DNA of 64,000 bases from positions 10,664,001 through 10,728,000 of the forward strand of contig JBHGNT010000011.1 in the NCBI GenBank assembly GCA_043228905.1, written 5' to 3'. The first letter of the stretch is position 1; every line of letters starts with the position of its first letter. This document shows, piece by piece, positions 8,918 through 53,318 of the stretch. The translations under genes were made by a program, and so were the position numbers. Origin of the DNA: Azolla caroliniana (lineage: Eukaryota; Plantae; Polypodiophyta). The notes below the pieces were generated by a model, which saw only the letters and a list, made by a program, of their open reading frames with translations, did not search any database and was not told where the DNA came from.

Positions 8918-9705
8918 TGTCGTAGTGTATTTCGTACACTACGTGAAAAAGTAAAAATAATATAACCGATTTAATTACATATAAATAAATAAAATAATAT
9001 ATCAAGATATTTATCACGTACATAGGGCAAGATTCGAACCCTATACCTCCACATAGCCAAACCTCAACTTTACCATTATGCTACCTTATCTTTAATGTTC
9101 TACAAATAGATTTAATAACTATAAGTGCTTTATTTGCGCCTACCTTTATTAAAAGGTAAATCATGCATTTTTAGAGTGCGTGAATATTTTATAGAAAAAC
9201 GCAAGCAACCAAAAAGTGACTCATGCACATCTAGCGTGCATGAGCACTATATTTAGCAAATAAAAGCAAGGATTAGAAAAGCATCACATGCACATTTAGT
9301 GTGCATGAACATATTAGAAAAAAGCATGTAGCTATGCTTAGTCTCTCCCATCACTATATAAGGATGGGGAGCACAATGTAATAGGCGTGTGAAATATTTG
9401 GAAATTGGATATATTTCCGAAAACACCAACCGATTAATATAATCGTGGGATTCACGAAAATAATATAATCTATACTTGTGGGATTCACAAGTTTCTTATA
9501 TCTTTCTTTCAATCTAAATACATATTCTTATCTAAATATTGATTAATCGAATAAAATACACTCGTGGGATTCACGAAATTTCTATCTCTCTTTCTAATAA
9601 TCTATACATTACTAGCCTCATCTCATATTCTTCTTTCTCCTAGTCCAAAACCTCGGTGGTTCCCACCCGACTCACGCAAACGATCCGGAGCCGAAAGGCA
9701 CGACA
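8918..9705 (+). mobile_element. Solo LTR of the Trp-primed gypsy lineage, inserted in Copia-1 integrase
   Basis: TGTCGTAGTG…GGCACGACA. The 3' ~70 bp is near-identical to the LTRs at 44106 and 50843. TSD ACGT/ACGT (4 bp). Confidence 0.93.
9021..9090 (-). other. tRNA-like A-box/B-box cassette inside the gypsy solo LTR
   Basis: Minus strand reads TAGCATAATGGTA…GGAGGT…GGTTCGAATC, with tRNA-like spacing. Confidence 0.7.
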
Positions 9706-11027
9706 ACGTCATACACTTGGATGTATGGGGACCAGCTCAAACGCCGACGATCGGCGGATGCCGATACTACGTAACCTTCATCGACGACTACTCCCGCTAC
9801 ATGTGGATCTACCCGATGAAGAAGAAAAGCGAAGTGCTCTCCCACTTCCAAAAGCTCAAGCGTCAAGTCGAAAAAGAAACCGGTCGGCACATTCAATGCC
9901 TACGATCGGATGGAGGAAAGGAGTACTTCTTTGACGAATTCACCTCCTACCTCCAAAGTGAAGGCATTCAAAGAGAATTCTCGTGCCGACACACACCCCA
10001 ACAAAATGGAGTCGCCAAAAGGAAGAATCGACAAATGCTCGAGGTCGCACGTGCCATGATGCATGAAAAGCACATGCCGAATTTCTATTGGGTCGAAGCA
10101 GCATCCACGACCGTCTATCTCATGAATCGATGCACCACCAATGGACTCCATGAGCTAACTCCCTACGAGCTCCTTGTCGGAAGGAAGTTGATCCTGTCGC
10201 ACCTCAAGGTGTTTGAAAGCATTGCGAATGTACGCATCCCGAACCAACACCGAGGGAAGCCTGATGCGAAGTAAGAGGAATGTATCCTCATAGGATACTC
10301 ATCCGCGAAGAAGGCATACAAGTGCTACAACCCTTCTACCCGAGCGGTTCGAGTAAGTCAAGATGTAGTCTTCAACGAGTCCGCATCTTGGTACGCACCA
10401 GAGACAACTTCGACTCCGACTCTACTCGACCCGGAATCCACCGAACAAGAGGTAGAAGATGGAGATCGCTTCGAACACATGTTCGAAGAAAGTTCGATTA
10501 CGGCAAGGCCTAGTGGGCCACAAGAGCCCCCTCGCGGCCCAGGCACGTCGTGGCCAAGTACGAACTTGGACAAAGGCAAAGGTAAGATGCTCGAATACGA
10601 AGTCGACCACCCTGACGACAATGATTCGGATGGATCGGCTCCCTCATTAGACAGTGAGTTTGGTGTACCCATCATGCGTACACCCGGAGTAAAGAAGGCG
10701 CTCACATCGGCGAGCGAAAAACTTCGACACTCTTCTAGAGAGAAGAATCTCGTCACTCGGCTCAGCTACAATGAGTATATGGCCCATCATTACACCTTCG
10801 CAATGAAGGTAGCGGTTGAACAAGAGCCTGAGAGCTCTACAGAAGTAGTTTGTAACCCGTGATGGGTGAAAGCACTCGGCCAATTTTGCACAAGCCTTCA
10901 CCACAGGCTTGAGGGGGAGGAACCGAAACTGCCACAAAGAAGTCAACGCTGAAAGAAACAATACCGACCATCCAAAGCCGAAGCCGATTCAACCGAATCG
11001 ACGATCGTGCTTGAGCTTGAGGGGGCG

Positions 11028-11136
11028 TGTTGAGAGATCAAGCTCGTCAACATTTCTAACTAGATTCTATCTAGGTAACTACGAAGTTACACGGTTGACT
11101 AACTAACTAAACTAAGTTGAGCTTGATCTCTCAACA
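11028..11136. repeat. Fold-back palindrome in the 3' LTR position of Copia-1
   Basis: TGTTGAGAGATCAAGCTC…GAGCTTGATCTCTCAACA forms perfect 18-bp arms with an inner GTCAAC/GTTGAC pair, immediately after the PPT. It resembles the U3 start of the Copia-2 LTR (TGTTGAGCAAGCAAGCTCAACTAG). Confidence 0.92.
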
Positions 11137-11176
11137 CATATCTTCAATTATTTGGTTAACACATTTATTTTGTCCA

Positions 11177-11700
11177 TTACATTACTAATAATATGAGGAA
11201 CTTGTGCTCAAAGTGGTTTCCGCCTTTTGAAAGACTTGGGTTCAAATCAAATAGTATACTGACTACATCCATCGGTAACATGTAAAATTGGAATATCTTG
11301 ACAAAAAACTTGTAAGCCAATTCATGAGTTGTTATTGTGATTTTAGTTGGTATAAACCTCACTAGTTTTGTAAGTTGATTGATAACAATTCATGTAGAGT
11401 CATGACATCTTTTTGTTCAATGTAGGTTAACAATAATAACAATAAACCCCATACATTAACTTTACGCCACTCAACCCTAATAGTTGTTACTTTGTTAAAG
11501 CTTTGCTTTATGATTTTATATAGAAAAACAAACAAAGATGCTAAGGATAATGTAAAACAGAATGTTGTGGAGGTGGTGATGGAGACCAAGTCCATGTTGG
11601 CAACATTTCACTGGTTTTATAGATTGCGGAGTTAATTTGTATTTCACTAGTAAACTTCCTTTGGTATTAAGGATTAAGCAATGGTTGAATTCATTCATAA
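11177..11700 (-). mobile_element. Degraded gypsy integrase fragment
   Basis: RFIPTKITITTHELAYKFFVKIFQFYMLPMDVVS resembles the gypsy integrase core (HFIP…GLP..IVSD). Confidence 0.5.
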
Positions 11701-14321
11701 TGCCTAATTGTGTTGATCATGTACATGTGAACCCAAAGAGGTTTCTATGATGTGTTTTTTCGATCATTAGAACATTGTATTGCTTTGATGGGAAAGGTAC
11801 CAATCCTTTTTTATAAAAGGTTAGTGCATATGATTAAATGGGTTCTTGTGGTCAATTAAAAAGATTTATTGAAATAACAATGTGCAAATTGGTAATTCTT
11901 GATTATAGTAATACATTTTTTTTAGAATTGTTACAAGAATTGATGCCTCAAATTGGTAAACTTTTGGTTGATCCCCATTTTAATTATTTAAAGAAATGTA
12001 GATTTTGCATGTCATGGGACACAAGTTGCAAGCTTCATAAGGAGAATTTTGCAAGACATTGTTAAAAATGTGGTCAATTGGGGCATTTTATGGTTATCAT
12101 GGCAAACCATACCAAAAAAATATATGTTAGAGAAAAAGATAACGAATATGTTTAGAATAATATTATCTTATCAATGGTTTATACGGTCATGGATGAGGGA
12201 CATGTCATGGGTTAGAGTGAGATTCTTAAGTTCAAGGTCATGGAGGTGTTGGTGAGGATAGTAGAGTACATACTAGTGTAGAACCAAATGTTGTTGAAGA
12301 ACAATAGTGGCATTAAGTGCAATATAATATAAAAGGGAAGGGTGTTGCCAAACAAAGGGACAGAATAAGTACTAATGGTAATGCATTACCAAAAGGTAAT
12401 GGGAGAATGAAGGAGGGGTTTAAGAGAAATTTGTGGCAAAAACAAGTGTGAAATTAGAGATTGTCTAACTAATTAAAGTTTGATTCTTTAGAAGGGTGAT
12501 GCAACTCAATTTAATAAAGGATTTCATACTCATGGGGCTAGACAACAAAATTCTATGATTGATGTAGTACACACAAATCCTTATGCAGTTCTTAAACAAG
12601 TAGTTACTACATTTATGCATACGTTTGCTCGTAAAGAGCAAATTCTTACTAAAGGTGTTCAGTAAGCGTGGTATCATGGAATGTGCGAGGGGCATCTTCT
12701 CCTCATAAGAAATATATATCATATAAAAAATATTTATTAACGAATGGGATATTTTATGTGTAGTTGGCCATAAGTTTCATGATTTAGTAAGATCTCTGAT
12801 ACATTTGCATGGATATATCCACATATTATGCAAGCCAATTATCACATCATTATTTGGGTGTAGCCATGATTATTCATGATTTGTTTTGTCCACATATAGT
12901 GCATATATGATCCATAGTGATCAAAGTCAAAACCTTTCAATGTTTTGATATGATTTGTAAGAACTTATGCACCCAACATTGCTAATCAACGCATCGAGTT
13001 GAGTTTTCTATGTATCCAAGGTTATCAATGGGTCGGACTGGTTTGTTGATGGGTGATTTTAACATGTGATTGCTGAGTTCTTTTGAACAAGTTGTTTGGG
13101 ACAAGCTTGCATTAGAGGTTTTGAAGTTGGATGTATGGAAATGGTTGCATCAAGATAAGTGTGGATTTATATTTTAAGTCTATATAATATACAGAAACAC
13201 AAAGTAGGTTGGACCAAATGTATGTTATACACGATGAGTCCTTTTTGCCAGAGATGCTTAATATGTCAATTGTGCAAGAGGTTGTATCCTCAAGATCATT
13301 TTTCCATAGGTTTCGTGTTTAATAAATATGTTGTATATATGTACAAAACATTGTTTGATAGGGTCCCTTTGAAGTTTAACTCTTATTTATTGTTTCATTC
13401 CTTGTTTGATGCTTGTGTGTGACAAATGTTCTATAGGTTTTCAGAACATGTTAATTCAAGGGGATGGCATGCATGGGATACAATATTTAAAAACATCGAG
13501 ATATTTAAAAACAGACAGGACACCTAGCTAAGGAGTGTCCTTGTAAGATTGGAAAGGGAAGCTCGGGACCACGACCCTCGGGCAAAGTCGGGACAACCAA
13601 GGGTGAAGAAGCTCCTTGGCTACCCGTTAAGAAGAAGGGGAAACTTGGAGGCCTAGGTGCCTCCTCTCCCGCCCTTTTTCATGACCACCCCCTTGAAAGA
13701 AGTCCTGCCACCTTGTCACCAGCAAGCGTGGACGAGCAACCCTTGAAACGAGTAAAGATCCTCTCCGGGAGTGCCAAGGCACCCGACCTACAGGTGAGAG
13801 CTACCAACAGATTTACACTTCTTCAAGGGTTAGGGGATGGCGACCCAGCAGCGCTGGCAGCAATGTTGTCCCCGTGCGACTCCTCACGCCTTCCCCCGCG
13901 GGAGCCCGAACTCGTGTTCTCCACCCCGATGGAGATGCAACCCCAACTTGTACCGTCCACCCCGGAAGAGAAGTTGGCACAGCCCCCCCCTCCCGTTGGA
14001 ACGTGAATGTGGTAGTGGCCTCAGATTAGTGAAATCGTGGATCCGGACGGGCAAGCTCAAGGACAAAGAAAAGGGTAAGATAGGAAGACCAACACCTGGT
14101 TTGGCAACGACTCTGTTAGATAGAAGGGTGCAAGTTGTGCCACCGCTTCGGAGCACAAATGTATCGCGGGATCTATTTGAAGCGGGTCGGGAACGACCGG
14201 CTGAGAATCTTGTAGGGGATTTGCAGCCTGCAGTGGAGACCATACCCCCCGAAACAGGTGTTAGTTTGCCCCATGACATGGGGATCGGCCCGAACATGGG
14301 CGCCAACGTCACCGTTTTCGG

Positions 14322-17300
14322 ATGAGGATCCTAACGTGGAATGTACAGGGCCTTGGTGGAGGCCGACAACACCAAGAGTGTAGAAGACTTCAGGAGGAGT
14401 TGAATCCCCTTAATATAGGGGGCCATATTGACATATTGCTTTTGCAGGAACACCACCTCTCGCAAGAGCGAACTCAGAGCTTAGTAAACCCCTTGTCGGG
14501 TGGGTGGACCACATGGTGGTCGGCTGCGCAGGGTGACCTCCACCGAAGAGGAGGGGTCTGCATCTTGATCAGCGATAAGGCCCGATACGAAGTAACATCA
14601 TCTGGCACGCTGGTGGAGGGTCGGGCCTTATACGTGCTTTTGAAATGGAATCGCCTACAGATTGGGGTGCTAAACATTTATGCCCCTAACTCAGCCCCCG
14701 AGAGAGCAATCTTTTGGAGGATGCTAGCAACAACATTACCTAATGTCGAGGCTTGGGTAATGGCAGGTGATTTCAACATGACTGAACACATGGGAGATAG
14801 GAAAGGAGGGACCTAGAGGCCTATTTATGGTGCGGAGCTGGATTCATGGGCTTTCCTAATTGGCAAAATCGGGGTGAAGGATACATGGGGCTCTTCCCTT
14901 AGGCGAAGCTCACATTCGCTGCACTTTTCTAGAGCCGCCGGGAATGCTAGGGGCGGTAGTCTTGCACGGCTAGACCGCATATACATCAGCTCATCCCTCG
15001 AAGAGCTCGGGGGCTCCTTTGCTATCTTGGCAGGCCTTACCTTTTCAGATCATCAGCCGGTGAGACTAGACCTTAACCCACCCAACGATAGCAAGGGCAG
15101 TCTCAATGTAAAGATCCCCATAAAGATCATGAAGAGTGAAGAGGTGAAGGCCGGTTTACAGAGTATATGGCAGGACACCATGGGCAGTAAATCAGCCAGC
15201 GAAGATCTGCAGAAAAAATTGGCCCTCTCCTCCTCCTTTTTACAACAAGAGACCAAGCGCGCCCTCCAACAGGTTAGAGCCATTGAAACAAAATTAAGGA
15301 AGGCCGTTGCGCTGTTACAGGTAGACCCTGGTTGCAAATGGTCTAGAGCTAAACTAGAGGAAGCAAAGATGAAGGTACATGAAAGGACTTTGGAGAAGAA
15401 CCGAATGTTGTTTCGAAGAAACGCAGCATGGTGGGCTAGAAAAGACGACAAGGCCAACCGACATTTCTTTCACTACAAGGCACCCAAGGGTGGTGGTGGA
15501 CGTATACACGGGCTGCGAAAACCAGACGGCTCAATAACGGAGGACAAGACTGAGGTTCTGGAAATGGCAACACAATACTATCGTGACCTCCTCGCACCTA
15601 TGCATGTGCGGCAAAACTCGGAGTTGGCTGATCGAGTGATGTCTTGCATTCACCCCAAGGTAACCCAAGAGATGGAAGTTGTGCTCGATAGTCCCATTTC
15701 TCGTTTAGAGCTCTCGGAGGCACTTAGGGGATTGCGAAGGGGTGCATGCTCCGGTCCCGATGGTCTCTCACGAGATTTCTTCGAGATTCATTGGGAATGT
15801 GTTATCCCGTCCTTGGAAGCCGGGTTCCAAGAGATTTGGTCCTCAGGAAAGATGCCGATTGGTCTGGCTGAGGGGATGATATATCTCATCCCCAAATCCC
15901 AAGAGCGAAGCCTAGAGTTGCGCCAATGGCGTCCAATCACAATCCTTAACACGGCATACAAGATACTCGCTAAAGTCCTAGCTCAGTGATTAGCAAGCTT
16001 CTTACCGGACATCATACACGACAATCAAACTGGGTTTGTCAAGAACAGGTGTATCTTTGATAATGTGTTGCTTCTTTGGGAAGCTATGGCATTGGCCGGT
16101 CGCTCCGTATCGAGCTCGACTATTCTGATGCTAGACTTCGAGAAGGCCTACGATAGGGTGTTATGGCCCTTTTTGGAAAATGTGATGAGAGCTTTGGGCC
16201 TACCTCAAAAATGGAGGAATTGCACTTCTGCACTCTATCGGACAGCTACGAGTAGCGTGCTGATGGCTGGATCTAGGGGACCCGCCTTCCAACTACAACG
16301 CTCAGTGAGGCAAGGTTGTCCCCTAGCCCCATATCTCTATCTCTTTATAACCGAGGCTTTCTCCGCCTACTTACAAGCACCAACTAGCGGGCTGCGGGGA
16401 TTGCCCATCCCCAATGCGACTGAAGATTTGCTGTTATCTGAATATGCCGACGATACGGTTCTTTTCTTGCAAGGTGATGAGGAGAATTTACAACGGGCTG
16501 AACATCTTGTCGAGGACTTTTGTCAGGCGGCTGGTGCCAAGATCAATTGGAATAAAACCCAAGGTCTATGGTTCAGCGAACAGGAGACACCAAGATGGCA
16601 ACCCCATGCCGATTTTACGTGGGTCCCTAGTGGGACGACTTTCAAGTACCTTGGATTTACGATGGGGAGGTCAATCCCCAAGGGAGCGCAATTGGCCCAC
16701 GTACAAGCCAAAATAAGTAAGAAGCTGAACCAGTGGAGTAGATCAAAATTGTCCTTCGCTGGTAGGGTCCTTGTGGCGAACCAAGTGCTGCTCGCTACCA
16801 TGTGGCACTCAGTCTCATGCTGGATTATGGACCCTGCAGGTTTGCACGCGATTAAGGCTGCCATTAGGGGGTTTATATGGTCAGGTAAGGACAACCCACG
16901 GGCTGCCGCCAGAGTCTCATGGTGTTGGTTAACGCAACCGCGGGTGTTATACATTTTAGGGTTAGGGTTAAGGACGATGATGATTATCAATGACAAAGAT
17001 AGACATGGCGTAATAGCGAAGATAATGGAGAGTATGATGGTAAGAGAGATTGGCATGAAGATGTTGAGAATCGTTGAGAAGCATTGTGGGGTGGGGGGTG
17101 GTGCCTAGAATGGCTCCACCCCCCTCCCAAGGGGGTTCAACGTTGAGGGAGAGAGATAGGAAGAGAGATGACAAGAGAGAGAGAGAGAGATGATTCCCTT
17201 TTCATTCATTCCCCATAAGGGGGTTAAATAGTACAAGAGGGGGTAGATACAAAGGGGTGTAAGCCCCCTAGAGCATTCATACTGGACACTCACTCATACC

Positions 17301-19140
17301 TCCTCGTATCCATCCACATGCACACACGTGTGCATGTGTTCACATATGTATCGACTCACAATTACATTTATGCCCCCTACACATACACAACATTATGATA
17401 ACATTCGACCCTCGCTCATCACACTTGACTCTCCGTACATCTCGTACGAGGTAACAACGGGCCAAAGGGGGGCTTGGCCTCATAGACCCCTTAATGCAGA
17501 GTCGTGCATTGCTGGCTAAAATGGTGGTTCGCTGCCTCCTGCCAGGTAAGGGGTGCTGGAAGGTACTTCTTCGCAACAGGCTGCAAGTAGGGACTCCCAA
17601 GTATGGTAGGCCTTGGCCCGACTCCTTGAATTGGTGCTGCACGAGTGGAGTCCCACCCAGGCTGGCTTGCCATCCGGAGGATAGGGTCACGAACTCCATC
17701 TTGCGGGCATGGTGCCATATACGACAGCATTTGGTCAAGCACACCCCGGAGACATTGACCGAATGGACTAGACAGCCACTATTCTGGAATCCTCATGTGC
17801 AAACGAATGACAACGCGATGCTAGGGCAACTTAAGGGCCTAGCATGGGGAAAGTTGGCACAAACAGGCCTCCTATCTATAGACGATTGGAGACGCATGGC
17901 TGATTCAGGAAGAGCCCAAGAGGACCTTTTCCCTCCCCTCAAGGGAGCTACGAAAATGCGGAGACTGATAGCTGAGGCAGTTGACAGGGTTCTGATGGGG
18001 GAGGCGAGAGAACATGCATGGTTCGGTCTCTTTGACGAGGCTGGAATGGTCAAGTCGCTAAAGGGCATGAGCGGATCGGGGAGTGATACAGTTTTTGGGG
18101 ACAGCCAGAGCAGCGGCTCTTGGCACCCAATCCGAGTGGTGGCACAGATTGATAACATCTGGAAGACAGACCCGGATGTTGCTAAGGTGGAACCCCATTG
18201 GAGGTTAAGGGTATACGGTTGTCGTCCCCTTGTCGATCTGGATTGGGACCCCGGGGATTTCAGATGGAAACATGACGATAGACTCCACCACTTCTTCGGT
18301 TACACCACTAAATTGGGTCGGACTTTGCAACTGCAGCGAGGCGGCCCCCTTCGCAACGGCTAGCGAACATTGGGCATCCCCGATGAGGCGCTCATTGCCT
18401 TTTGGAAGGGTCTTTGGCGTCTCCACATGCATGAAAAGATCAAGCTCTTTTGGTGGCAGATCGGTCATAATGTGGTGCCCGTTGGCGAATGGTTAGATAA
18501 ACGTGGTGGCCCGTTAGGCTGCCCACTGTGCTCTCTACCTATTGAGTCTCTGAGACATTGTTTGTGGGATTGCCCTCAAGCTCAAAAGGTATGGGATAGA
18601 GTGACTCGCCTCCTTGTGGCATGTGACGTTGAAGGAACAGCCTCGTGGAGCGCTGCGGCATGGATTGATCACTCGGTCGAAGGGTGGACGGACGCCGTCA
18701 ATGCGGATAGTTGGTGCTATGTATGCACGAGAGGCAAAATCGTCAAGATCCATTTTGAAAGAGGCTTGCAGCCCGCATCCCCTAGGTTTCCGGAAATCTG
18801 GATGTTGATCGCAGGTTTCACCTTGTGGTATATATGGAAAGCGCGTTGCCTCAAGGTCTTCCAAGGTACGGTACGACCCTCGGAGGAAGTGATCATGGAC
18901 ATATGGTTCGCGCTTATCAGCTGCCTACGAGGGCAACTAGAAGAGGTTTGCAGCCACTCCAACGACGTGACCACTGCCCGTTTGCGCTTTTGGCAGAAAT
19001 GGCGGAACACACCTATGGTGATGCAAGGCGGGAGTGGCCCGAGGTGGAACTACCAGCCCCCACGTTGGTTGTTTCCTATTCACCTGCCACCCTCTCTTCG
19101 GTGTAGGCCCCAAGAGCCGACTCGTACGAGGCCACATTGA
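14322..19140 (+). pseudogene. LINE ORF2 (APE endonuclease, RT, zf-RVT) with in-frame stops and a solo-LTR insertion
   Basis: Motifs ILTWNVQG, LQEHH, YAPN, GDFN, RLDRIY, SDH, WRPITILN, LDFEKAYD, QGCPLAP, YADD, CPLC…HCLWDC. Stops at 14814, 15987 and 18361. Confidence 0.92.
16945..17456. mobile_element. Solo LTR inserted in LINE ORF2
   Basis: TGTTA…TAACA ends and TSD GCGGG/ACGGG. Removing it restores QPRAKGGLGL. Confidence 0.85.
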
Positions 19141-19374
19141 AGGGCATTGCCTTGGATATAGGTAGCTTCTTACATTAAGTTAGGCCGCAAGGCAATGTAA
19201 GTGGCTCATCTTCTTTGGCTTGATCGGAGGAAGTCTCCCCGATGTGTGTATAAATCTCCTTATAGACTCTATGTAATAATCCTTCCTAACTAATGGGAAA
19301 GTAGCTTTACTTTGAAAAAAAAAGAAAAAAAAGAAAAAAAACATCGAGATATTCACTATATGCATGGTTTGACT

Positions 19375-42553: not shown

Positions 42554-44190
42554 TTGGTACTGTGGCAAAAAGGGCCACAGGGAAAGCGAGTGCTGGAAGA
42601 AGCGTGCCGATTCGGACAAATCCGAACCCGGCAAAACTGGTCGGGAGAACTGGCAAAGCTCGCACTACGCGGAAGGATCCGGAACTGGGAAAACCGGTAA
42701 AGGGCCAGCCTTCGTGATGAAACACAAGGATAACTCGATGAAGAAGACTACTTCCAAATCGGAGGAAGTATGGTACGTTGATTCCGGAACATCCAACCAC
42801 ATGACAAGCCATGAAGAGTGGTTCTCCTTTTTGGAGAAGCTGGAACAATCAGGGATTGTCGAAATTGGAGACGACACCCCTCACCTGATTGTGCATGTCG
42901 GAGAAGTCCCTTTAAGCCATGTCGGACAAAAGGGGAAGCAGATGAACGTACTACACGTTCCGACTATCACAAAGAACCTGGTGTCAGTTGGGAAAATCGT
43001 CGACCAGGGGATGCCAGTGCGTTTTACGCACCTAGGGTGCTTCATCGAGGAAGAGGGCTGGATAATTGCGCAAGGGCGCAAAGACGGGAGGATGTTCATC
43101 CTCAACACTAATGATGTCGGCACCGCTATGTTTGCAAATGGGCAGAAGGTCGAATTGGACATCGACCTGTGGCACAAGCGGATCAGCCACATCACTTATC
43201 GGAGGCTTCAAGACCTGCAATTGAAATAAGTCGTTTTCGGTTTGCCGAAATTTAGTGGCCAGAAGGCTGAAATTTGTGAAGCCTGCCAACTTGGGAAGCA
43301 ACATCGGCTTCCATTTCCCACCGATCGAAACCGGAGCCATAACAAGCTCGATTTAATCCATTTGGATGTATGGGGACCGACACAAAACGTTAGTCTTGGT
43401 GGGAGTCAGTATTTTGTCTCCTTCATCGACGACTACAGCCGATACACATGGATCTACCTCATCAAGAGGAAGAGTGAAGTCTTCAAGTGTTTCCGGAAAC
43501 TTCAAAGCTTGGTTGAATGGGAAACGGAGAGGAAGATCAAGTGCTTGCGGTCGGATGGCGGGAAAGAATACTTTTCCGGCCAATTCAATAGTTATCTGCA
43601 GCAGAACGGAATTCAGAGAGAATTTAGCTGCAGGTACACATTGGAGCAAAACGGTGTGGCCGAAAGAAAGAACCGGTCGATTATCGACGTGGCAAGGGCA
43701 ATGCTGGAGGAGAAGAGTATGCCCCATTTCTTTTGGGCCGAGGTGGTCCGGACGACTGTCTACATCCAAAACTGGATCGGTGACAAGGTGTCAACACATG
43801 AGTTGTATTTCGGGCGAAAGCCGAATTTGAGACACCTTCGAATATTCGGTAGCATAGCATATGTGCATGTACCGGATGAGAAGCGGAGGAAGCTGGATCT
43901 GAAGTCGGAGAAATGCATTCTAGTCAGTTACTCACATGAGCAAAAGGGGCATAAGTGCTTTAACCCCCGGACTAAGCAAATCCGAGTAAGCCGAGATGTT
44001 GAGTTTGATGAGACGACATCATGGTACTCCTTATTGACTCTAACTCCCAAACCGGGTGATACCAAGTTGCGCCGGTCTTCCCGCCTGAAGAACCCCGTTA
44101 CACGGTGTCGTAGTGTAGGTTGCACACTATGTGGAAATTATATTTTTGTCCCTCCGGATAGAGAATGGAGTGCTCGGTGAGAACCGGAAG

Positions 44191-44285
44191 AAAACGGCAT
44201 ACCGGCAAGGAGGAAAAACGGCATACCGGCAAGGAGGGAAAACGGCATACCGGCAAGGAAGAAAACGGCATACCGGCAAGGAAGA
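44191..44285 (+). repeat. 23-24 bp tandem repeat in U3 (4 units in 5' LTR, 5 units in 3' LTR at about 50928-51044)
   Basis: Unit AAAACGGCATACCGGCAAGGA(G/A)G. Confidence 0.9.
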
Positions 44286-44332
44286 GCCGGATAAAGAGAC
44301 ATAAATGTAAAAAGAAAGGAAATACTCACTAC

Positions 44333-44404
44333 TGCGCAAGGCGTGATTCAAACTCTGCACCTCCACGTTGACAAACCCCAACCTTACCATTACATTAACT
44401 TATC
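44333..44404 (-). other. tRNA-like A-box/B-box cassette in Gypsy-A LTR (second copy at about 51093-51164)
   Basis: Minus strand reads TAATGTAATGGTAAGG…TTGTCAA…GGAGGTGCAGAGTTTGAATC, followed by a T5 tract about 25 nt later. Confidence 0.65.
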
Positions 44405-44946
44405 TTAAGTGTTTTAAATATAGATTTAATACGTATAAGACCTTTATTTATGCATACCTTTATTAAAAGGTAAATCGTGTATTTTTTTAATATATGAAAA
44501 AGAAAAACACGAGACACTAAAAATAACTCATGCACATCTAGCGTGCATGAGCCCTATACTTAGGAAATAAAAAAGCATCACATGCACATTTTAGTGGACA
44601 TGAACACTTTTTGTAAAAGAAAAAAAAAGCATGAAGCCATGCTTAGCTCTTCCTTCCTTATATAAGGAGGAGAGAAATATATAAAGGGTTGTTGATTATT
44701 TGGATTAAGGATTAATCAATACAAAAATTATTCGTGGGATTCACGATTTATACATCTACTTCTCTCTTAACACCCTAAGTACCAATTAATATAGTATACT
44801 CGTGTGATTCACGAGTTTCTTATCTTTCTCTTCGCTATTTATTCATAATTAATCTTTATCTCACGAACTTCTTTCTCCTAGTCCAAGACCTCTGTGGTTC
44901 CCACCCGACTCACGCAACGATCCGGAGCCGAAAGGCACGACACAGT

Positions 44947-44963
44947 TGGTGAACCCGACGTGA
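44947..44963 (+). promoter_or_regulatory. Primer-binding site complementary to cytosolic tRNA-Trp
   Basis: TGGTGAACCCGACGTGA is the reverse complement of the plant tRNA-Trp 3' end (TCACGTCGGGTTCACCA). It lies 4 nt after the LTR. Confidence 0.85.
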
Positions 44964-44980
44964 AAACGGGTGGCAAGGAG

Positions 44981-47020
44981 ATGGAGGCTCAACAAGCTAA
45001 CAATATGATGGCGATGTTCGAACGGATGCTTCAAGAACAACGCACGATGTCGGAGATTTCGGCATCAGTAGAGCGGCTCGTGCAACGCAACGGGCAATTT
45101 AATGGTAAGGATGTGTCGCGATATTTGCAGGACTACAAGGCGGAGATGCTCCGGTGCCGGGCTTCGGAAGGACTGCAAGTGACATCCTTTAACCGGGTGG
45201 CGACCGACGGGCTTCAAGGGAGTATCCACGGGTTGCAACAACAAAATCCGACGTGGGAAGCATTCGAAGAGGCGTTAAAGACCACGTTTGCCATCGAGGA
45301 CTCCTCCAAGGCAACGCGGAGGGGATTCGAGGATTGGGTGGAAACGTCAGGTAAGGGGCTGAAGGTCCTCGAAGTGTTTTCGACATTCGAAAGTCGGTTC
45401 GGGAGGTTGTCCGCGAGAGATCAAACTATTCTTGCACCGGACAAAGTCATCATGTTTTTGCGAGTTGTGGACGTCCGGGACCGGAAAGATCTCGGAGTGC
45501 TTCTTGAGGACACGACCACCGAAAGCGGCCTCACCGAAACATGGGAAAGCGTGCGGGATATCGTCGCGCGGTACATGAAGAGGGGGCAATGGCTTGCCAA
45601 CGAAGAAAAGAGGGTTTCGGAACCGATTCCGAAACCGAGAATGGGACTGGAAGACCATCAACCGAGGGCTCGGGAGATTACGGCCGAGAAGGGAGTCGAT
45701 GCGTCTACGGTGGAGCAGCTGCTGAAGGAGATGGAGAATCTAAAGATCGCGATGGTGAAGAAGTCGGATGACCGCCCCACAAGCTCCAAATATACGGATC
45801 GACGGTGCATATGGTGCGATAGCGCCGAACACGATCGGAGGGATTGCGACGACCATAAGGAGGCGCTACGACGGGATCTCATCTACTACGAGGGAAACCG
45901 GATTCATTCGATGGACTCTCGGAAGCCACTCCGACCGAACTTCCGGAAAGGCGGCATGAAGAAGGTGCTCGAGGAGGAGTTAGCGGCAAGAAGCAACTAT
46001 GCGACAACCGCGGGAATATGTGTCGGGGAGTCATCGGGAGCGAAGGCGTCTTTCTGGCCGGAGGTGCTAGGAAACACCGAGAAAACCGACTCCAACGATA
46101 TCTGAAACACCGCGGAAGGCGTCCGGGAAGCTACGGGATGGGAGTGCCCTGTCGACAAGAATAGCATATACGCCCTGTGTCAATTACATGAGGTGTATGT
46201 GGACGAGAAATGACGGCGCACGGAGGATGCGGCCGGACCATCGAAGATACCGGAAAGCTGGAACTCCGGAGGTAAGGGAAAAGAAAAGGCGACTCCGGCA
46301 TTCAAGCTCGCCTCGGACATAGAACAACAAACCGACTTGAAAAGAGTGTTCGAGGAAAGAATCTTGGATAGCCGGGTAGATTTTTCGTTGCGGGAACTAC
46401 TCGGAATAGCGAAGAAGGAGTTTCACGATCTTCTCGTGGATCTCGTGAAAAGGAAGAGACAAAGTACGGAGGAAAATGCTCCAAGGGTGAATGCAAATAC
46501 CGTTTCAACGAACGACACCGAAGTGGAAGGCGAAATTCCGAACTCCCACTATACAAGGCCACACTGGGCCCGTGCGACTACGGAGACTCCGGTCCGAATC
46601 GGCAACATCAAAGAACCCGTGCTAGCATTGATTGATCACGGATCGGAGATCAACTTGATGTCCAAGGAGTTCTACCGAAAGGGGAAGTGGCCTATAAACA
46701 CCAACCATGGATGGAAGATTCGGGCAGCCACGAAAACGACAGAAGACCTATTTGCGGCTTGTCCGGATGTGACGGTAAAGATCGGGGATGTCGAAATTGA
46801 CCAAAATTTCTTTGTGCAGGATGAGGTTTCACATTCTGTCATCCTCGGCCAACCCTTTATCACGGCTTCACGGATGGAGACGAAGGTGCTCGATAGTGGT
46901 GCGGCTTTTGCGCGAATTCGGAGCCAAAACGGAGGGAAATCCGTCCAATTCCTAACGGTGCCGGCAAATCACGAAAGGAACAAGAGGGAACTCTTGCCCC
47001 AAGTGAGAATGGATTTTTAA
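44981..47020 (+). pseudogene. Gypsy-A gag-protease with two in-frame TGA stops
   Basis: FNGKDVSRYL, zinc knuckle CIWCDSAEHDRRDC and protease ALIDHGSEIN are all in one frame. TGA stops at 46103 and 46211. Confidence 0.88.
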
Positions 47021-47063
47021 AGCGGACTGTTGCGGAGTGGGGAAGTGATAGTCCGAGAAGCCC
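47011..47063 (+). promoter_or_regulatory. Putative -1 ribosomal frameshift signal between protease and pol
   Basis: G_GAT_TTT precedes the TAA, followed by stem GGACTGTTGC/GTGATAGTCC. The -1 frame is open into the ORF at 47155. Confidence 0.7.
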
Positions 47064-47113
47064 TGATACCCCACACAGGAAGAAAACTCTCGGAGCAAAA
47101 CAAGTACGAATCG

Positions 47114-47574
47114 GCCCGGATGGGGCATCTACGTACACGGCCGTAACCGGAGGAATGAAGAAACAATACCGACAAGTGGAGGATAAGTTACGGTCGGCAT
47201 CAATAATAAAAGAAGACGAAGAAATCGTGGGAGTGATCGAGGAAGTGTTCTATGGGAATACACTACAACGGCTTGAAGAGCTTGCGGAAGATAAAAGCCA
47301 AGGGAACCGGGTAGTCCCGGTGGAATCGGTCGAGATGTACGTAGATGCCCGGATGGGGCATCTACGTACACGGCCGTAACCGGAGGAATGAAGAAACAAT
47401 ACCGACAAGTGGAGGATAAGTTACGGTCGGCATCAATAATAAAAGAAGACGAAGAAATCGTGGGAGTGATCGAGGAAGTGTTCTATGGGAATACACTACA
47501 ACGGCTTGAAGAGCTTGCGGAAGATAAAAGCCAAGGGAACCGGGTAGTCCCGGTGGAATCGGTCGAGATGTACG
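47114..47574 (+). repeat. 233-bp tandem duplication that frameshifts the pol N-terminus
   Basis: 47114-47341 is repeated from 47347. ORFs 47155 and 47388 begin with identical peptides in different frames. Confidence 0.95.
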
Positions 47575-50500
47575 AGATTGTTGCGAAAATGGGGCCGGAT
47601 GCGCTCCGCAAAGAAGAAGCAATGGTAAGTACGAAATACAAGACCGTGGAGAAGAAGGTGAAACCGGCCGCGGGACCACTACCCGCCGATAGCGAACAAA
47701 AGAGGAAAGAAGTCTCGGGAGATCCGACACTTCGGAAGACCGTGGATATCGGACATGCCTTCACAGATGAGACCCGGAAGAAACTTCGGATCGGTGGAGG
47801 TGGGTTCCTCTTACAAGAAGAAGAAAAACGGTTTCGAGAGATGTTGGAGCAACACGGCAAAGCATTCGCGTTCACATCGAGGGAGATCGGATGCATTGAT
47901 CCAAAGATAGTGGAGCCGATGGTGATCTTCACGATTGATCATGTACCGTGGAACCTGAAGCCGATTCCGGTGCCACGGGCGCATATTCCGAAAGTCATCG
48001 ACTTGCTCAAGGAGAAGGTGGCGATGGGGATTCTAGAGCCATCAAGTGCTCCGTACTCAAATCGATGGTTTACGGTTCCGAAGAAGAATGGGTCACTCCG
48101 ATTCATCCAAGACTTGCAACCGGTGAACAAGGTCACGATCCGGAACTCGGGAGTCGGTCCGATAGTGGACGAATTCGCGGAAGCTTTTGCCGGACGTGCG
48201 ATATACTCCATCGGGGACCTATACTCGGGGTATGACCAATTCCAACTAGCCGTGGAGAGCCGAGACATCACTACCATGCGGACACCGATAGGACTAGTTC
48301 GAATGTGCACACTACCACAAGGAGCGACAAACTCGGTTGCACATATGATGAACGCGATGAACAAGGTGCTTCGAGATTGCATCCCGGAGATAACGATGCC
48401 GTTTCTAGATGACATTCCGATGAAAGGATGCGCGGTGGAAGAAAAAGATGAGACTATGGATGATCGGGGATGCCGAAAGTTCGTGGTCGACCATATTCAT
48501 GATTGCGAGAAAGTGTTGCGAAAGCTAGAAGATGTGCACCTAACACTTTCCGGGGAGAAATCGGCATTCGGGCAAGAAGAAATATTGGTGGTCGGACATC
48601 TATGTGGACCCTACGGCCGAAGACCGTCACCAACAAAGATCGATGCGATTCAAGCTATGAAGGAAGTATGTGAGTCAACATCGGAAGTCCGAAGGTTTCT
48701 GGGTGCGTGTGCATTCTATCACATATGGATTCCGCACTATGCACATATAGCGGACCCGCTCTATCACTTGTTGCGGAAAGGTAAGAAATTCGAGTGGAAA
48801 CCGGAACACACTAAAGCCATGAGGAAGCTCAAGAAGACACTATGGAGGGCGGAATCACTTAAGAAGCCAAGCTACGAGCGGCCAATCATAGTAACGGTTG
48901 ATACAAGTCCAACCGGTATCGGGTGGGTCATCAATCAAGCCGACTCGGATGGTTCGCGGTATCCGATCCGATTTGGGGCAAAGGTCCTCAACGAAAGGCA
49001 ACGCGGATATGCACAAGTCAAAAGAGAATTGTGGGGAGTCGTGTCGGCGATAAAATCGGATCGGGATTATTTGATCGGAGCTGAAGTGGTGATCGAGACG
49101 GATTGTCTTCCGATACTCGGGATGATGCGGTGTTGTACGATACCGGATGTGGCTATGCTAAGGTGGATTGCATATGTCAAGTCACTTAATCCGGAGGTTC
49201 GACACATCTCGGGGAAGGACAACGCGGTAGCGGACATGTTATCGAGGGCGCGGTTTGAAGACGACATAACCGAATCAGATAATGAAGAAGTTTCCGAAGA
49301 CTACTTCACGTCAGAACACATATGCCGAGTGAACGTGATCCGAGAATTCCGGGAAGAAGAATACGAGGGGGAAACCTTGATGATCGGGAAGATGCTACAA
49401 GAGGTCGAGGATTCAACCAATGATAAAGAAAGGAGAGCCGAGATCCGAAGGAAGAAGAGGCAAGTCCAAAAGTTCTTCTTGGAAAACGGTTTAATATGGA
49501 GGACGCCGAAAAGACCGGATGGGATACCACTTCGAGTAGTCGGGACGAAAGAGCAACGAAACCGGATAATGTCCGAGTTCCACGAATCCGATTGGGCTGG
49601 ACATCGAGGAACATGGGCAACTTTTGTGAAAATCAAGCAAAGATATTGGTGGAAGAACATGTATAAAGATGTCGCGGAGTTCACAGAAAGCTGCGAGAAA
49701 TGTCAAGTCTACTCCGGGGTCCGACACCGAGATGAGCTGCATCCGACATTCTCACCGACAATCAACTTCAAGTGGATGGTCGACATTGTAGCTATGCCGA
49801 CCGGGATTGGACAAAAGAAATACTTGGTGTTAGCTCGAGAAGATCTCACAAACCAAGTTGAAGGTCGAGCGCTTCGGAGGAAAACGTGTGCCGCGGTGTG
49901 CCAATTTCTTTTGGAAGAAGTGTTTTGTAGGTACGGCTGCGTAGGACAAGTGATTGCGGACCGGGGAGAACTCGACTCGGACAAAGCTAGGGGATTCTTC
50001 GCCAAACATGGAGTTCGGTTAACGTTGACAACGGCCTACAATCCGGAGGCCAACGGGAAGATCGAACGAGGACATAGTCCGATCGTGAAAGCACTTGCGA
50101 AGGCATGCGACGGAAGGGTGAAGGATTGGCCACAAATGCTTCCGTATGCACTATGGGCGGATCGGACGACGCATAGCTCCGTGACCGGTTACATGCCGGC
50201 AGAACTCATGACCGGACAAGCACCGGTAATGCCAACGGAAACCGCAATCGCGACATGGACAATACTACCGTGGAAGGAAGAGATGAGCCGGGAAGAACTA
50301 CTAGCGGTCCGGATACGACAACTGGAGGGAAGACCGAAAGATGTAGCGGAAGCGTCACGCCGACAACAAGAAGCACGGTTCCGGAACAAAAGCCGGTTCG
50401 ACACAAAGCACCGACTACGACCGAGGAGGATTGAAGAAGGAGATTGGGTGATCGTCTATGATAGTAGCTTGGACCATCAACATACAACGATGCGGAAATT

Positions 50501-50855
50501 CGCGAAAAGGTGGTTCGGGCCGTACGAGGTTCGGAAGGTCTTCGACAACGGGACGTACCGACTGTCCGAGTTGGATGGAACAATACTACGAGTGCCTATA
50601 GCCGGGAAGCGGGTGAAGATTTTCAAGAAGCGGACCGACGACAAACCTTATGTGATCCAAGTCGAGGCCGACAACGAGGAGCAATCGGACGAAGACCACA
50701 ATGATGCGGGAAGCGAAGAAAGTGGATTACAACTCATAATCGACATAAGGGGAGAATCGGAGGAAGCTTCGGATGAAGACGGATACGAAGAATCAAGAAC
50801 TTCGGCACATACCGGAGGATGTGCGGGTTTGGAGGGGGCGAGTGTCGTAGTGTAG
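47388..50855 (+). CDS. Gypsy-A pol (RT, RNaseH, integrase; no chromodomain)
   Basis: 1155-aa open frame with DLYSGYDQ, LPQGATNS, PFLDD, VDTSPTGIG, HHCC zinc finger, ADRGE, NPEANGKIER and WFGPY. Confidence 0.92.
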   Translation: MKKQYRQVEDKLRSASIIKEDEEIVGVIEEVFYGNTLQRLEELAEDKSQGNRVVPVESVEMYEIVAKMGPDALRKEEAMVSTKYKTVEKKVKPAAGPLPADSEQKRKEVSGDPTLRKTVDIGHAFTDETRKKLRIGGGGFLLQEEEKRFREMLEQHGKAFAFTSREIGCIDPKIVEPMVIFTIDHVPWNLKPIPVPRAHIPKVIDLLKEKVAMGILEPSSAPYSNRWFTVPKKNGSLRFIQDLQPVNKVTIRNSGVGPIVDEFAEAFAGRAIYSIGDLYSGYDQFQLAVESRDITTMRTPIGLVRMCTLPQGATNSVAHMMNAMNKVLRDCIPEITMPFLDDIPMKGCAVEEKDETMDDRGCRKFVVDHIHDCEKVLRKLEDVHLTLSGEKSAFGQEEILVVGHLCGPYGRRPSPTKIDAIQAMKEVCESTSEVRRFLGACAFYHIWIPHYAHIADPLYHLLRKGKKFEWKPEHTKAMRKLKKTLWRAESLKKPSYERPIIVTVDTSPTGIGWVINQADSDGSRYPIRFGAKVLNERQRGYAQVKRELWGVVSAIKSDRDYLIGAEVVIETDCLPILGMMRCCTIPDVAMLRWIAYVKSLNPEVRHISGKDNAVADMLSRARFEDDITESDNEEVSEDYFTSEHICRVNVIREFREEEYEGETLMIGKMLQEVEDSTNDKERRAEIRRKKRQVQKFFLENGLIWRTPKRPDGIPLRVVGTKEQRNRIMSEFHESDWAGHRGTWATFVKIKQRYWWKNMYKDVAEFTESCEKCQVYSGVRHRDELHPTFSPTINFKWMVDIVAMPTGIGQKKYLVLAREDLTNQVEGRALRRKTCAAVCQFLLEEVFCRYGCVGQVIADRGELDSDKARGFFAKHGVRLTLTTAYNPEANGKIERGHSPIVKALAKACDGRVKDWPQMLPYALWADRTTHSSVTGYMPAELMTGQAPVMPTETAIATWTILPWKEEMSREELLAVRIRQLEGRPKDVAEASRRQQEARFRNKSRFDTKHRLRPRRIEEGDWVIVYDSSLDHQHTTMRKFAKRWFGPYEVRKVFDNGTYRLSELDGTILRVPIAGKRVKIFKKRTDDKPYVIQVEADNEEQSDEDHNDAGSEESGLQLIIDIRGESEEASDEDGYEESRTSAHTGGCAGLEGASVVV

Positions 50856-51954
50856 GTTGCACACTATGTGGAAATTATATTTTTGTCCCTCCGGATAGAG
50901 AATGGAGTGCTCGGTGAGAACCGGAAGAAAACGGCATACCGGCAAGGAGGGAAAACGGCATACCGGCAAGGAGGGAAAACGGCATACCGGCAAGGAGGAA
51001 AACGGCATACCGGCAAGGAAGAAAACGGCATACCGGCAAGGAAGAGCCGGATAAAGAGACATAAATGTAAAAAGAAAGGAAATACTCACTACTGCGCAAG
51101 GCGTGATTCAAACTCTGCACCTCCACGTTGACAAACCCCAACCTTACCATTACATTAACTTATCTTAAGTGTTTTAAATAAAGATTTAATACGTATAAGA
51201 CCTTTATTTATGCATACCTTTATTAAAAGGTAAATCGTGTATTTTTTTAATATATGAAAAAGAAAAACACGAGACACTAAAAATAACTCATGCACATCTA
51301 GCGTGCATGAGCCCTATACTTAGGAAATAAAAAAGCATCACATGCACATTTTAGTGGACATGAACACTTTTTGTAAAAGAAAAAAAAAGCATGAAGCCAT
51401 GCTTAGCTCTTCCTTCCTTATATAAGGAGGAGAGAAATATATAAAGGGTTGTTGATTATTTGGATTAAGGATTAATCAATACAAAAATTATTCGTGGGAT
51501 TCACGATTTATACATCTACTTCTCTCTTAACACCCTAAGTACCAATTAATATAGTATACTCGTGTGATTCACGAGTTTCTTATCTTTCTCTTCGCTATTT
51601 ATTCATAATTAATCTTTATCTCACGAACTTCTTTCTCCTAGTCCAAGACCTCTGTGGTTCCCACCCGACTCACGCAACGATCCGGAGCCGAAAGGCACGA
51701 CAACGGTACGGGTATAATGAGTACATGGCGCATCATTATGCGTTCATGACTAAGGTGGCGGAAGCGCGTGAGCCGGAGAGCTACGCAGAAGCGGCAAAGG
51801 ATGCAAATTGGCGTGCCGCTATGGAGGAAGAAATGCGGGCACTAGATGCCAACAACACATGGGACCTCGTTGACCCTCCCTGACACTATAAACCGATCGG
51901 TTGCAAATGGGTGTACAAGGTAAAGTACAATGTTGACGGTTCGGTTAACAAGTA

Positions 51955-52761
51955 CAGATCCGGATGCACCTCGATGACTAGGAGAAAATGGCTTTCGTCA
52001 CCGAATGGGGAGTGTTTGTTACCGTAGTAATGATGTTCGGACTAAAAATGGCACCGGCAACGTTCCAGAGGATCATCATGGAAATATTCGGAGAATTCAT
52101 ACCGGCATTCATGTAGGTGTTTCTGGATGACTTCGCCGTCTATAGTTGGGAAGGAGATCACTTTCAGCACCTCCGACTGTGTCTAGAGAAATGTCGGGCT
52201 TACCGGCTAAGCTTGAATCCGGCAAAATGTGTATTCGGAGTGTCAAGCGGGGCGCTATTAGGACACATTGTGAGCAAGGAAGGAATTGTCATGGACCCGG
52301 ACAAAGTAAAAGCAATCTTGGAGGCATCGGCACCAACAACAACCCAAGCATTAAGCCGTTTCTTAGGCCAAATCCGGTGGCATAGCCGAATGCTCTGGTA
52401 TTTCACGGACCTAGCTACATCACTGCATGCTGCGGTACACCGAACATCGTTCTAGTGGACCGACACCGAAGACAAGGCGTATCGGGCACTCAAAGTACTA
52501 TTGTCGAAAAGCGCCGGTAATGCAACCACCGGATTGGGCTAAGGAGTTTCATGTGTTCGTGGATGTGTCCGACATTGCAATCGGAAGTGCACTGATGCAA
52601 CTTACAGAGCCAAGGTGGTATTGGCCCGTATATTACGCAAGCCGAAAGTTATCCCAAGCCGAGCGAAATTATTCCACCACGGAGAGGGAAGCTTTGGGCA
52701 TGATCTACAGCGTGACAAAATTCAGACATTATTTGTTGGGAAGGAAATTTTCCTTCCACGT
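51955..52761 (+). mobile_element. Degenerate RT-RNaseH fragment (Gypsy-C), same family as Gypsy-D
   Basis: QIRMH…AFVTEWGVF…FLDDF…YYASRKLSQAERNYSTTEREALGM is collinear with the minus strand of about 62755-63560. Several stops. Confidence 0.9.
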
Positions 52762-53247
52762 TGTCGTGCCTTTCGGCGCCGGATCGTTTGTGTGAGTCGG
52801 GTGGGAACCACCGAGGTTTTGGACTAGGAGAAAAGAAAATTGTAAGGCAATGAAGAATATGAAATATGTTGTAAGAAAGAAAGATATGAAAAACTCGTGA
52901 ATCCCACGAGTATAGTGTATTAGTGAGTACTCAAATTAAGAGACGAAAATAGTTAGCAAACTCGTGGATCCCACGATTATATTATATTAATCAACCCTTG
53001 TAAAAATAATCAACAACCTCTATACATCTTTCTCTCTTCCTTATATAGTGTTGGAAGAGTCTAAGTTTATCACATGCAAGCATCATGCTTTTCCTATTTT
53101 TAGTTTTCATGCACACTGCATGTGCATGATTAGCTTTCTATCTCATCTTTTCTTTTAACTCGAGTGTCTATGCATGAATAACTTTTTGTACCACGCATGT
53201 CTAGAAATTTTACATGGGATAAAGTTTAGTATAACTTTAAAATTCAT

Positions 53248-53318
53248 AATACGCTAGTATAATGATAAGGCTTAACATTATTAACATGGAGGTGCAAGGT
53301 TCGATTCTTGCCCTATGC
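53248..53318 (+). other. tRNA-like A-box/B-box cassette in Gypsy-B LTR (antisense to element)
   Basis: TAGTATAATGATAAGG…GGAGGTGCAAGGTTCGATTCTTGC, with T-stem-like GCAAG/CTTGC pairing. Confidence 0.7.

Follow-up and report, generated by a model that had tools for sequence, protein, structure and literature searches.

The closest described systems are the Helenus TRIMs (TRIMp3; Kojima, 2024; PMC10886601), whose LTRs contain tRNA-derived sequence that is kept around boxes A and B without a functional tRNA. As described in the accessible part of that paper, these elements are non-coding, span 311–1263 bp, and have a promoter that is proposed to transcribe the element; in contrast, the carriers reported here measure 7.6 kb, encode gag and pol, have a TATA promoter, and hold a unit that is mostly antisense. 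The same part of that paper argues that the autonomous partners of Helenus need Pol II, places the sole plant Helenus in Selaginella, and mentions that "not a few LTRs" of Repbase contain tRNA-like pieces, which it leaves undescribed. Cassandra and Ajax TRIMs, as presented there, likewise have an internal Pol III promoter in their LTRs, but this promoter is 5S-derived and drives the RNA of non-autonomous elements, unlike the case here. Foamy viruses offer a second parallel, since the available text of PMC3993851 describes autonomous elements whose LTRs combine A/B-box Pol III units with an adjacent Pol II promoter; however, their cassettes yield defined hairpin RNAs with terminators, whereas no conserved fold or terminator is evident here. 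Finally, yeast and animals have TFIIIB/TFIIIC barriers and tRNA-gene insulators, in which a B-box cis element is likewise proposed to restrain silent chromatin (PMC9540200), but these barriers are host loci rather than being carried in an element's own LTR. The accessible sections of that review of plant barriers give no tRNA-gene barrier from plants. A search of the openly accessible literature yielded no description of tRNA-like units in autonomous plant elements or in Phygy or moss Tcn1 LTRs, and the available text of PMC7466625, PMC2864245, and PMC6317226 makes no mention of a tRNA-like LTR unit.

We analyzed a 64,000-nucleotide stretch of the Azolla caroliniana genome (contig JBHGNT010000011.1, positions 10,664,001 to 10,728,000), hereafter the window. 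The original prediction held that gypsy LTRs in this region keep an antisense tRNA-type module. All four predicted LTR copies were found in place, each antisense to its element and with 43 nt separating the A box from the B box, among the following features (window coordinates):

8918..9705, plus strand: solo LTR of the Phygy-type family, with a 4-bp target duplication (ACGT), sitting inside a Copia element
9071..9083, minus strand: A box of the tRNA-type unit in the solo LTR
9030..9040, minus strand: canonical B box of the solo LTR, GGTTCGAATC
9212..9330, plus strand: CATGCAC-type palindromic repeats of the solo LTR, between the tRNA-type unit and the TATA box
9355..9363, plus strand: predicted TATA box of the solo LTR
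44106..44942, plus strand: 5' LTR of Gypsy-A, with target duplication ACGG
44385..44397, minus strand: A box of the Gypsy-A 5' LTR
44344..44354, minus strand: damaged B box of the Gypsy-A 5' LTR (TTTGA, C56 to T)
44659..44667, plus strand: predicted TATA box of the Gypsy-A 5' LTR
44947..44963, plus strand: primer-binding site of Gypsy-A, with 5561 exact copies in the genome
44882..47020, plus strand: gag-like (without Pfam match) and DUF4100/protease frames of Gypsy-A, as separate ORFs
47104-47569: tandem duplication of 233 nt in Gypsy-A
47295..50855, plus strand: pol ORF of Gypsy-A, 1186 aa, with RT, RNase H, and integrase and no chromodomain
50831..50842, plus strand: polypurine tract of Gypsy-A
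50843..51702, plus strand: 3' LTR of Gypsy-A
51145-51157 and 51104-51114, minus strand: A box and damaged B box of the Gypsy-A 3' LTR
52762..53642, minus strand: 3' LTR of Gypsy-B
53255..53308, plus strand: tRNA-type unit of Gypsy-B, antisense to the element (A box 53255-53267, B box 53298-53308)
53643-57593: pol remnants of Gypsy-B

Pattern searches detected the module more often than chance would give. The motif as originally described gave 506 genome matches, compared to none for its reversed control, and a generic A/B-box pattern gave 1713 matches, again with 0 for the control; 29 of the first 30 loci examined with the generic pattern were not tRNA genes, and every LTR match that could be oriented was antisense. 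When scored with a weight matrix trained on host tRNA genes only (30 shuffles per module), the solo and Gypsy-B modules came out above every shuffle; neither damaged Gypsy-A copy reached significance, with 2/30 and 4/30 shuffles equally high. The A-to-B distance was 43–45 nt in 18/18 representatives (scan window 41–47 nt), and most host tRNAs fall at 42–45 nt, i.e., the spacing is that of a type 2 Pol III promoter. The tRNA-derived origin that had been proposed is supported.

The unit is nevertheless not a functional tRNA gene by the measures applied. At default thresholds, Rfam detected no tRNA in the window or in nine loci, ARAGORN recognized 0/18 units at full threshold and made calls only when relaxed, and the window modules shared no cloverleaf fold (folding z-scores of −0.2, +1.6, and −1.9). 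Parentage was sought in a host set of 13 isotypes, some organellar, from which Trp, Pro, Val, Ala, and Glu were absent. A second Phygy family best matched host tRNA-Arg(TCT), with 0/200 spacer shuffles as good, whereas the window modules (9/200, 18/200, and 64/200 shuffles as good) are too worn for parent assignment. Inspection by eye for plant tRNA upstream motifs (TATA-like, CAA) gave no clear match.

In line with the prediction that the module is carried by a protein-coding gypsy lineage, full-length Gypsy-A measures 7597 bp and is a gag-pol element that encodes RT, RNase H, and integrase. Its 5' and 3' LTRs differ by two mismatches over 837 aligned bases, and its primer-binding site is one that we take to correspond to tRNA-Trp. 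Deleted derivatives of about 3.3–3.7 kb retain gag. The coding capacity of the 7597-bp element sets it apart from Helenus/TRIMp3, as does the orientation of the unit, which, if a sense promoter is required, could not transcribe the element; identity with Cassandra was rejected because the unit is tRNA-type rather than 5S-derived. The order RT-RNase H-integrase, the lack of a chromodomain, and an internal region filled by the polyprotein were all found in Gypsy-A, and target duplications in the window's family were NCGN in 31/32 cases. These match the traits given for Phygy elements in the available text of Neumann (2019; PMC6317226), i.e., NCGN target preference, no chromodomain, and a short internal region that the polyprotein takes up. 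Judged from sequence, the carriers are Phygy-type non-chromovirus Ty3/gypsy elements. Their closest named homologues are Riccia proteins (~70%), and the Riccia proteins gave no clean outgroup.

Two details of the predicted module held in part. The TTTGA B box attributed to Gypsy-A is present in the window's copies but is a minority state in the family: of 380 genome matches, the first 100 listed comprised 83 with TTCGA, 16 with TTTGA, and one with TTCAA. The common U3 position holds relative to the TATA box (about 250–315 nt) but not to the LTR 5' end, from which the distances are 113, 239, and 335 nt because of tandem repeats upstream.

Conservation was assessed across 61 LTRs (from 115) that were chosen by U5 or PBS anchors rather than by the module and that represent 18 subfamilies and 112 distant pairs. 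Identity reached 0.80 in the B box, a value attained by 0/310 U3 windows, and 0.72 in the A box (16/306 U3 windows as high), compared to 0.47, the same as the median of U3, in the anticodon region; the boxes are thus better conserved than the anticodon arm, as anticipated. The A-to-B length was 54 nt in 57/60 LTRs, whereas seven other 54-nt U3 windows clear of the B box kept their modal length in only 8–42 of 60. The TATA box, U5, and the CATGCAC repeats were conserved equally well or better than the boxes; these repeats, which are kept across LTR subfamilies and also occur in a distant relative, may act at 9212..9330 as a Pol II enhancer. Between the window LTRs and those of the distant relative L322 (integrase 69% identical), alignment was confined to the CATGCAC palindrome and the stretch around the B box. 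TTCGA was the majority state in every subfamily with at least eight sampled LTRs, and its persistence despite the mutation hotspot described below suggests selection against B-box loss. In Tcn1, a young family, U3 was conserved all along (0.75–0.98) with no box excess visible, in a run that had faulty LTR ends.

We used 40 Gypsy-A LTR pairs to follow mutations arising after insertion. C56 of the B box changed to T in seven of the 40 pairs, compared to 11 events over 40 other CpG strand-sites (Poisson p = 2 × 10^-8), a rate approximately 25-fold that of other CpGs. Inside the module, 14/16 C/G transitions were C-to-T on the module strand (p = 6 × 10^-6), compared to 14/22 on the same strand outside it (p = 0.07). 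Ratios of TTTGA to TTCAA among the matches listed were 16:1 for Gypsy-A, 21:7 for the second Phygy family, and 7:4 for Tcn1 (not significant). The second family, for which 12 LTR pairs had been chosen for intact boxes, showed no strand bias (4/11 C sites, 4/14 G sites), and host tRNA arrays of three isotypes, a weak control with non-independent copies, contained 41 C56-to-T and 16 G57-to-A changes. According to the accessible part of PMC6130373, C-to-T and G-to-A rates are both raised in transcribed tRNA genes, in contrast to the one-sided skew in the module. The strand-biased hotspot may indirectly indicate Pol III engagement, although strand-biased methylation or repair could also generate it.

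The unit was predicted to be always antisense; this is true of the window's family, with antisense units in 27/28 complete U5-anchored LTRs, but not of its relatives. Upstream of TATA, different, sense-oriented units are present in L294/L299, which is the sister lineage (integrase 83%), and in L295/L296 (integrase 72%), and L208, L297, L298, and L382 have two antisense units upstream of TATA plus one sense unit downstream. Both the orientation and the sequence of the unit thus appear to be exchangeable between related lineages. In Tcn1 chromovirus LTRs, chosen by polypurine tract, the unit lies at the LTR start, with both boxes in 29/30 and the A box deleted in one. The largest Phygy clade of the genome (21 RT rows) is without the unit; among the PBS-anchored regions L221-L260, 3/40 passed the scan for their own LTR, or five if two weak copies are included. 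Of the metagenome relatives with LTRs of at least 350 nt (n = 50), 12 had an antisense unit and four had one in sense orientation in U3, whereas the other 34 showed neither; no relative was found among viral contigs. In 1.2 Mb of own-genome DNA, a sample biased towards elements, the clustered high-scoring units were LTR-borne or a single weak internal match.

We propose that the tRNA-derived A and B boxes in U3 form a platform for TFIIIC and Pol III that acts in cis next to the Pol II promoter, and give this reading a probability of about 50%. TFIIIC and the rest of the Pol III machinery would dock on the DNA at the two boxes, with TFIIIB placed on the promoter-facing side of the unit and short antisense Pol III transcripts arising as by-products. 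So bound, the unit would hold the adjacent Pol II promoter in an open state, or shield it, among silenced transposons. It would be an optional, non-essential helper, because many families are without it. Of the two functions originally suggested, an antisense RNA or an insulator, the latter gains indirect support from the unit being swapped in the sister lineage and multiplied elsewhere. It is possible, though we hold this more tentatively, that Phygy and Tcn1, two gypsy lineages far apart from each other, have taken up tRNA-type promoters on repeated occasions, exchanging and multiplying them as portable barriers flanking their own Pol II promoters.

The prevailing antisense orientation, both in U5-anchored LTRs and in the generic-pattern matches, would also suit a functional short antisense Pol III RNA, for example one that dampens the element or influences how small RNAs silence U3. 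The C56 skew is compatible with transcription of the module, and Pol III miRNAs are expressed from foamy virus LTR cassettes (PMC3993851, available text). A T4–T5 tract was predicted downstream and does occur, with T4 23–35 nt past the B box in the window's family; however, it is no sign of a terminator, because 4761/7953 (60%) of 40-nt windows of antisense U3 contain T4, and two Tcn1 representatives have none in 100 nt downstream. In addition, the spacer drifts at the U3 rate, no common fold is evident, and sense-oriented units stand in for antisense ones in relatives. We consider a functional RNA unlikely, and the defined antisense transcript of ~90–100 nt that had been envisaged loses support, given that neither a fold nor a spacer sequence nor a terminator appears to be conserved.

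Equally improbable is passive inheritance, in which SINE or tRNA sequences that inserted into U3 long ago would simply be passed on with the LTR as they gradually decay. Such a relic would accord with the lack of a unit in most Phygy families and with B-box CpG retention being no better than elsewhere in U3 (cluster-weighted, 0.44 versus 0.56–0.66 for four of the six remaining CpGs that were listed for U3 downstream of its terminal CpG). Elements with a damaged box also still transpose: in the TTTGA sublineage, which includes the window's Gypsy-A, both LTRs are damaged and members differ by 3–11 inherited changes, so this sublineage has probably transposed repeatedly without C56. Even the antisense bias might follow if sense SINE tails disturb 3' processing. 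However, the boxes and the distance between them persist around a saturated spacer, TTCGA remains the majority although C56 mutates so much faster than other CpGs, captures recur at one promoter-proximal place, and the element-biased 1.2 Mb contained no free SINE family. Passive SINE inheritance, which the original prediction had listed among the outcomes that would refute it, is hence disfavoured.

A slightly less likely explanation is that the bound Pol III complex serves as a roadblock or dampener, stopping flanking read-through into the 5' LTR or lowering the element's own Pol II output. In yeast, tRNA genes repress nearby Pol II promoters and act as Pol II roadblocks. The same box conservation speaks for this reading, and the Tcn1 unit occupies the outer edge of U3, 11–40 nt from the LTR end; however, a copy in the 3' LTR would presumably hinder genomic RNA short of R, and units on both sides of TATA better fit an open-promoter role. 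It is very unlikely that the unit is a landing pad drawing Pol III-targeting (Ty3-like) elements or the family's own integrase to LTRs, as the 120 nt upstream are unlike any other copy (over 90 nt) in just 2/111 window-family module copies and the target duplications follow the known Phygy preference.

Previously, Pol III promoters in plant LTRs had been known to drive the RNA of small non-coding elements. Here, the carriers are protein-coding and belong to two lineages, the units are mostly reversed, and signs of selection are confined to the boxes. If the platform recruits TFIIIC, this would explain element expression within silenced transposon nests. Given the 1713 pattern matches and the near absence of tRNA genes from the first 30, these LTRs could be more numerous TFIIIC targets than true tRNA genes. 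Such recruitment would also make testable, in mosses, the long-open question of whether tRNA-type units serve as chromatin barriers in plants. If they are indeed portable barriers, the genome would contain thousands of mobile TFIIIC sites, and the unit would be the first tRNA-type insulator from a plant.

All four window-family LTRs in the window (the solo LTR, both Gypsy-A LTRs and the Gypsy-B 3′ LTR) contain the predicted antisense module, i.e., a tRNA-type A box and B box in U3, with the boxes 43 nt apart. These and other features of the window are as follows.

8918-9705: solo LTR
44106-51702: Gypsy-A, complete element with RT, RNase H and integrase; no chromodomain
Minus strand: Gypsy-B, 3′ part
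13509-19140 (+): LINE interrupted by stops, with endonuclease, RT and zf-RVT
27373-27430 (+): tRNA-like A/B-box unit, score 21.5, not within any LTR; flanks similar at genome locus L274
27474-27868: three degenerate tandem copies following that unit, then an apparent BED-finger remnant (by eye)
42069-42405: 9/23-nt tandem repeats rich in palindromes, separating gag-like from pol parts of a Copia-type element
61070-64000: pol of a second gypsy element, followed by an ORF of 979 aa with no Pfam hit
~57593-58003: 3′ LTR of the second gypsy element, with no obvious purine tract ahead of it
58006-58022 (minus): CCA-ending stretch, like the 3′ end of host tRNA-Arg(TCT), in place of that tract

As a search pattern, the motif of the original prediction gave 506 matches in the 523 Mb genome, compared to zero in the control. 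A U5 anchor that made no use of the module gave 1531 matches; 30 such loci yielded 28 complete LTRs, with the unit antisense in 27 and partly deleted in one. The TTTGA B box reported for Gypsy-A is present in the window, but it is the less common state, seen in 16 of the first 100 among 380 matches, and the downstream T-tract occurs at chance level (60%). Target duplications are of 4 bp and read NCGN in 31 of 32 elements, the hallmark of the Phygy clade known from Physcomitrella (PMC6317226); the closest named pol homologues are from Riccia (~70%). The Phygy and Tcn1 lineages would suggest a moss as the host. Deletion derivatives of the window family, ~3.3-3.7 kb long and retaining gag, lie at L162, L166, L168, L169, L229 and L250, of which L162 is a tandem with three LTRs.

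We assessed conservation in an alignment of 61 of 115 LTRs, those chosen without use of the module, from 18 subfamilies. Between distant subfamilies, B-box identity was 0.80, a value reached by none of 310 U3 windows, and A-box identity was 0.72, reached by 16 of 306 (with the A-box interval one base off). As predicted, both exceeded the anticodon region, which at 0.47 equaled the U3 median; with gaps ignored, the values were 0.82, 0.80 and 0.52, respectively. Of 60 LTRs, 57 had an A-to-B span of 54 nt, whereas the length of other U3 windows was far more variable. Since the TATA region (0.88), U5 (0.91) and CATGCAC repeats (0.70) are conserved too, the unit behaves as one among the working signals of the LTR. 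TTCGA is the majority form in all subfamilies with at least eight sampled LTRs; because the B-box base C56 mutates so fast that loss would be expected over 20-35% divergence, we read this retention as selection. Against selection counts that, with old single copies weighted equally, B-box CpG retention is below that of most other U3 CpGs. Overall, the unit is real and probably selected, and its being a passive relic appears unlikely.

The fast mutation of C56 was apparent from LTR pairs, which are identical at insertion, such that differences between them arose afterwards. Among 85 differences in 40 Gypsy-A pairs, C56-to-T occurred in seven pairs, whereas 40 other CpG strand-sites together had 11 events and the opposite C in the same palindromic TTCGAA changed once. 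All seven fall within 29 pairs selected irrespective of that base, though in two the target duplications do not match, so that these may stem from recombination, leaving five. Within the module, 14 of 16 C/G transitions were C-to-T on the module strand. Among the genome matches listed, TTTGA:TTCAA was similarly skewed in a second Phygy family (21:7) and stood at 7:4, not significant, in Tcn1 elements; 12 LTR pairs from the second Phygy family, which had been selected for having intact boxes, showed no strand bias. As transcribed tRNA genes are mutation hotspots (PMC6130373), such a skew is consistent with transcription by Pol III or with bound TFIIIC; methylation or repair acting unequally on the two strands is another possible cause. 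The U3 of a new copy derives from the 3′ LTR of its parent, so damaged daughters cost nothing for one generation. Six elements with damaged B boxes in both LTRs differ by 3-11 inherited changes, and thus at least one sublineage probably continued transposing without C56.

Neither ARAGORN nor Rfam detected a tRNA in the module at default thresholds, and its folding energies were not consistently better than those of shuffles; the unit is not itself a tRNA. When compared with the 13 recovered host isotypes, the unit of a related Phygy family matched tRNA-Arg(TCT) outside the boxes too (0 of 200 spacer shuffles as good), which supports a tRNA origin; the window copies matched none of the 13 decisively. 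Host tRNA genes occur in arrays with many degenerate copies (L031-L060, L261-L280); those examined held 85 Arg-TCT, 45 Lys-TTT, 31 Thr-TGT and 15 Ile-TAT sequences.

Diverged units occur in further Phygy families of the genome (L203, L213, L208, L254, L382) and at the LTR start in 29 of 30 LTRs of Tcn1-type chromoviruses, selected by polypurine tract and confirmed by chromodomain; a single Tcn1 pattern matched 1004 times. A generic A/B-box pattern had 1713 genome matches and none in controls, and its first 30 loci comprised one tRNA gene, one tandem array of LTR ends and otherwise LTR units, antisense wherever flanks show orientation. Further high-scoring units lie at about 800-860 in L176 and 730-790 in L246, and L390 (G000:C1:15580280-15583334) is a tandem array of Tcn1 LTR 5′ ends with a unit in each.

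The unit is nevertheless optional for Phygy elements, being missing from the largest Phygy clade in this genome. Metagenome relatives numbered 80 by integrase, 50 with LTRs of at least 350 nt; among these 50, which are not independent because contigs are partly near-identical to one another or to the window family, the unit was antisense in 12 and absent in 34, with eight sense matches (four in U3, two right after TATA, one outside the LTR, one weak) and 0 of 100 strands matching in reversed controls. On an integrase tree whose root is not secure, the antisense state requires at least five to six gains or losses. A sister lineage (L294, L299) shares the LTR ends of the window family but has a different unit, in sense and upstream of TATA, and L208, L297, L298 and L382 have outward-facing units on both sides of TATA. 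Phygy LTRs with at least two units or duplicated B-box halves were seen at L208/L130, L297, L298, L382, L306 and L329, four of them with an additional sense unit ~85-130 nt past TATA.

In the literature searched, we found no report of tRNA-like LTR units in Phygy or moss Tcn1 elements. The LTRs of Helenus and Cassandra likewise hold Pol III promoters, but both elements are short and lack coding capacity, and autonomous elements were argued to use Pol II (PMC10886601); the LTR Pol III cassettes of foamy viruses serve miRNAs (PMC3993851). A functional antisense RNA, as originally proposed, is unlikely given that no constraint was seen on sequence, fold, terminator or orientation. A roadblock or dampener is slightly less probable still, and a landing pad is very improbable, as only 2 of 111 window-family copies had upstream sequence that did not match another copy. 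Constraint limited to boxes and spacing, in units that are swapped and multiplied, is instead the pattern of a DNA-level element. Barriers formed by TFIIIB/TFIIIC and tRNA genes are known in yeast and animals, with no plant tRNA-gene case in the available text of the review (PMC9540200). We therefore give a probability of about one half to a docking role, in which TFIIIC would bind the A and B boxes and place TFIIIB at the side towards the enhancer and TATA, and this stretch of the promoter may thereby be kept open or shielded within transposon nests.
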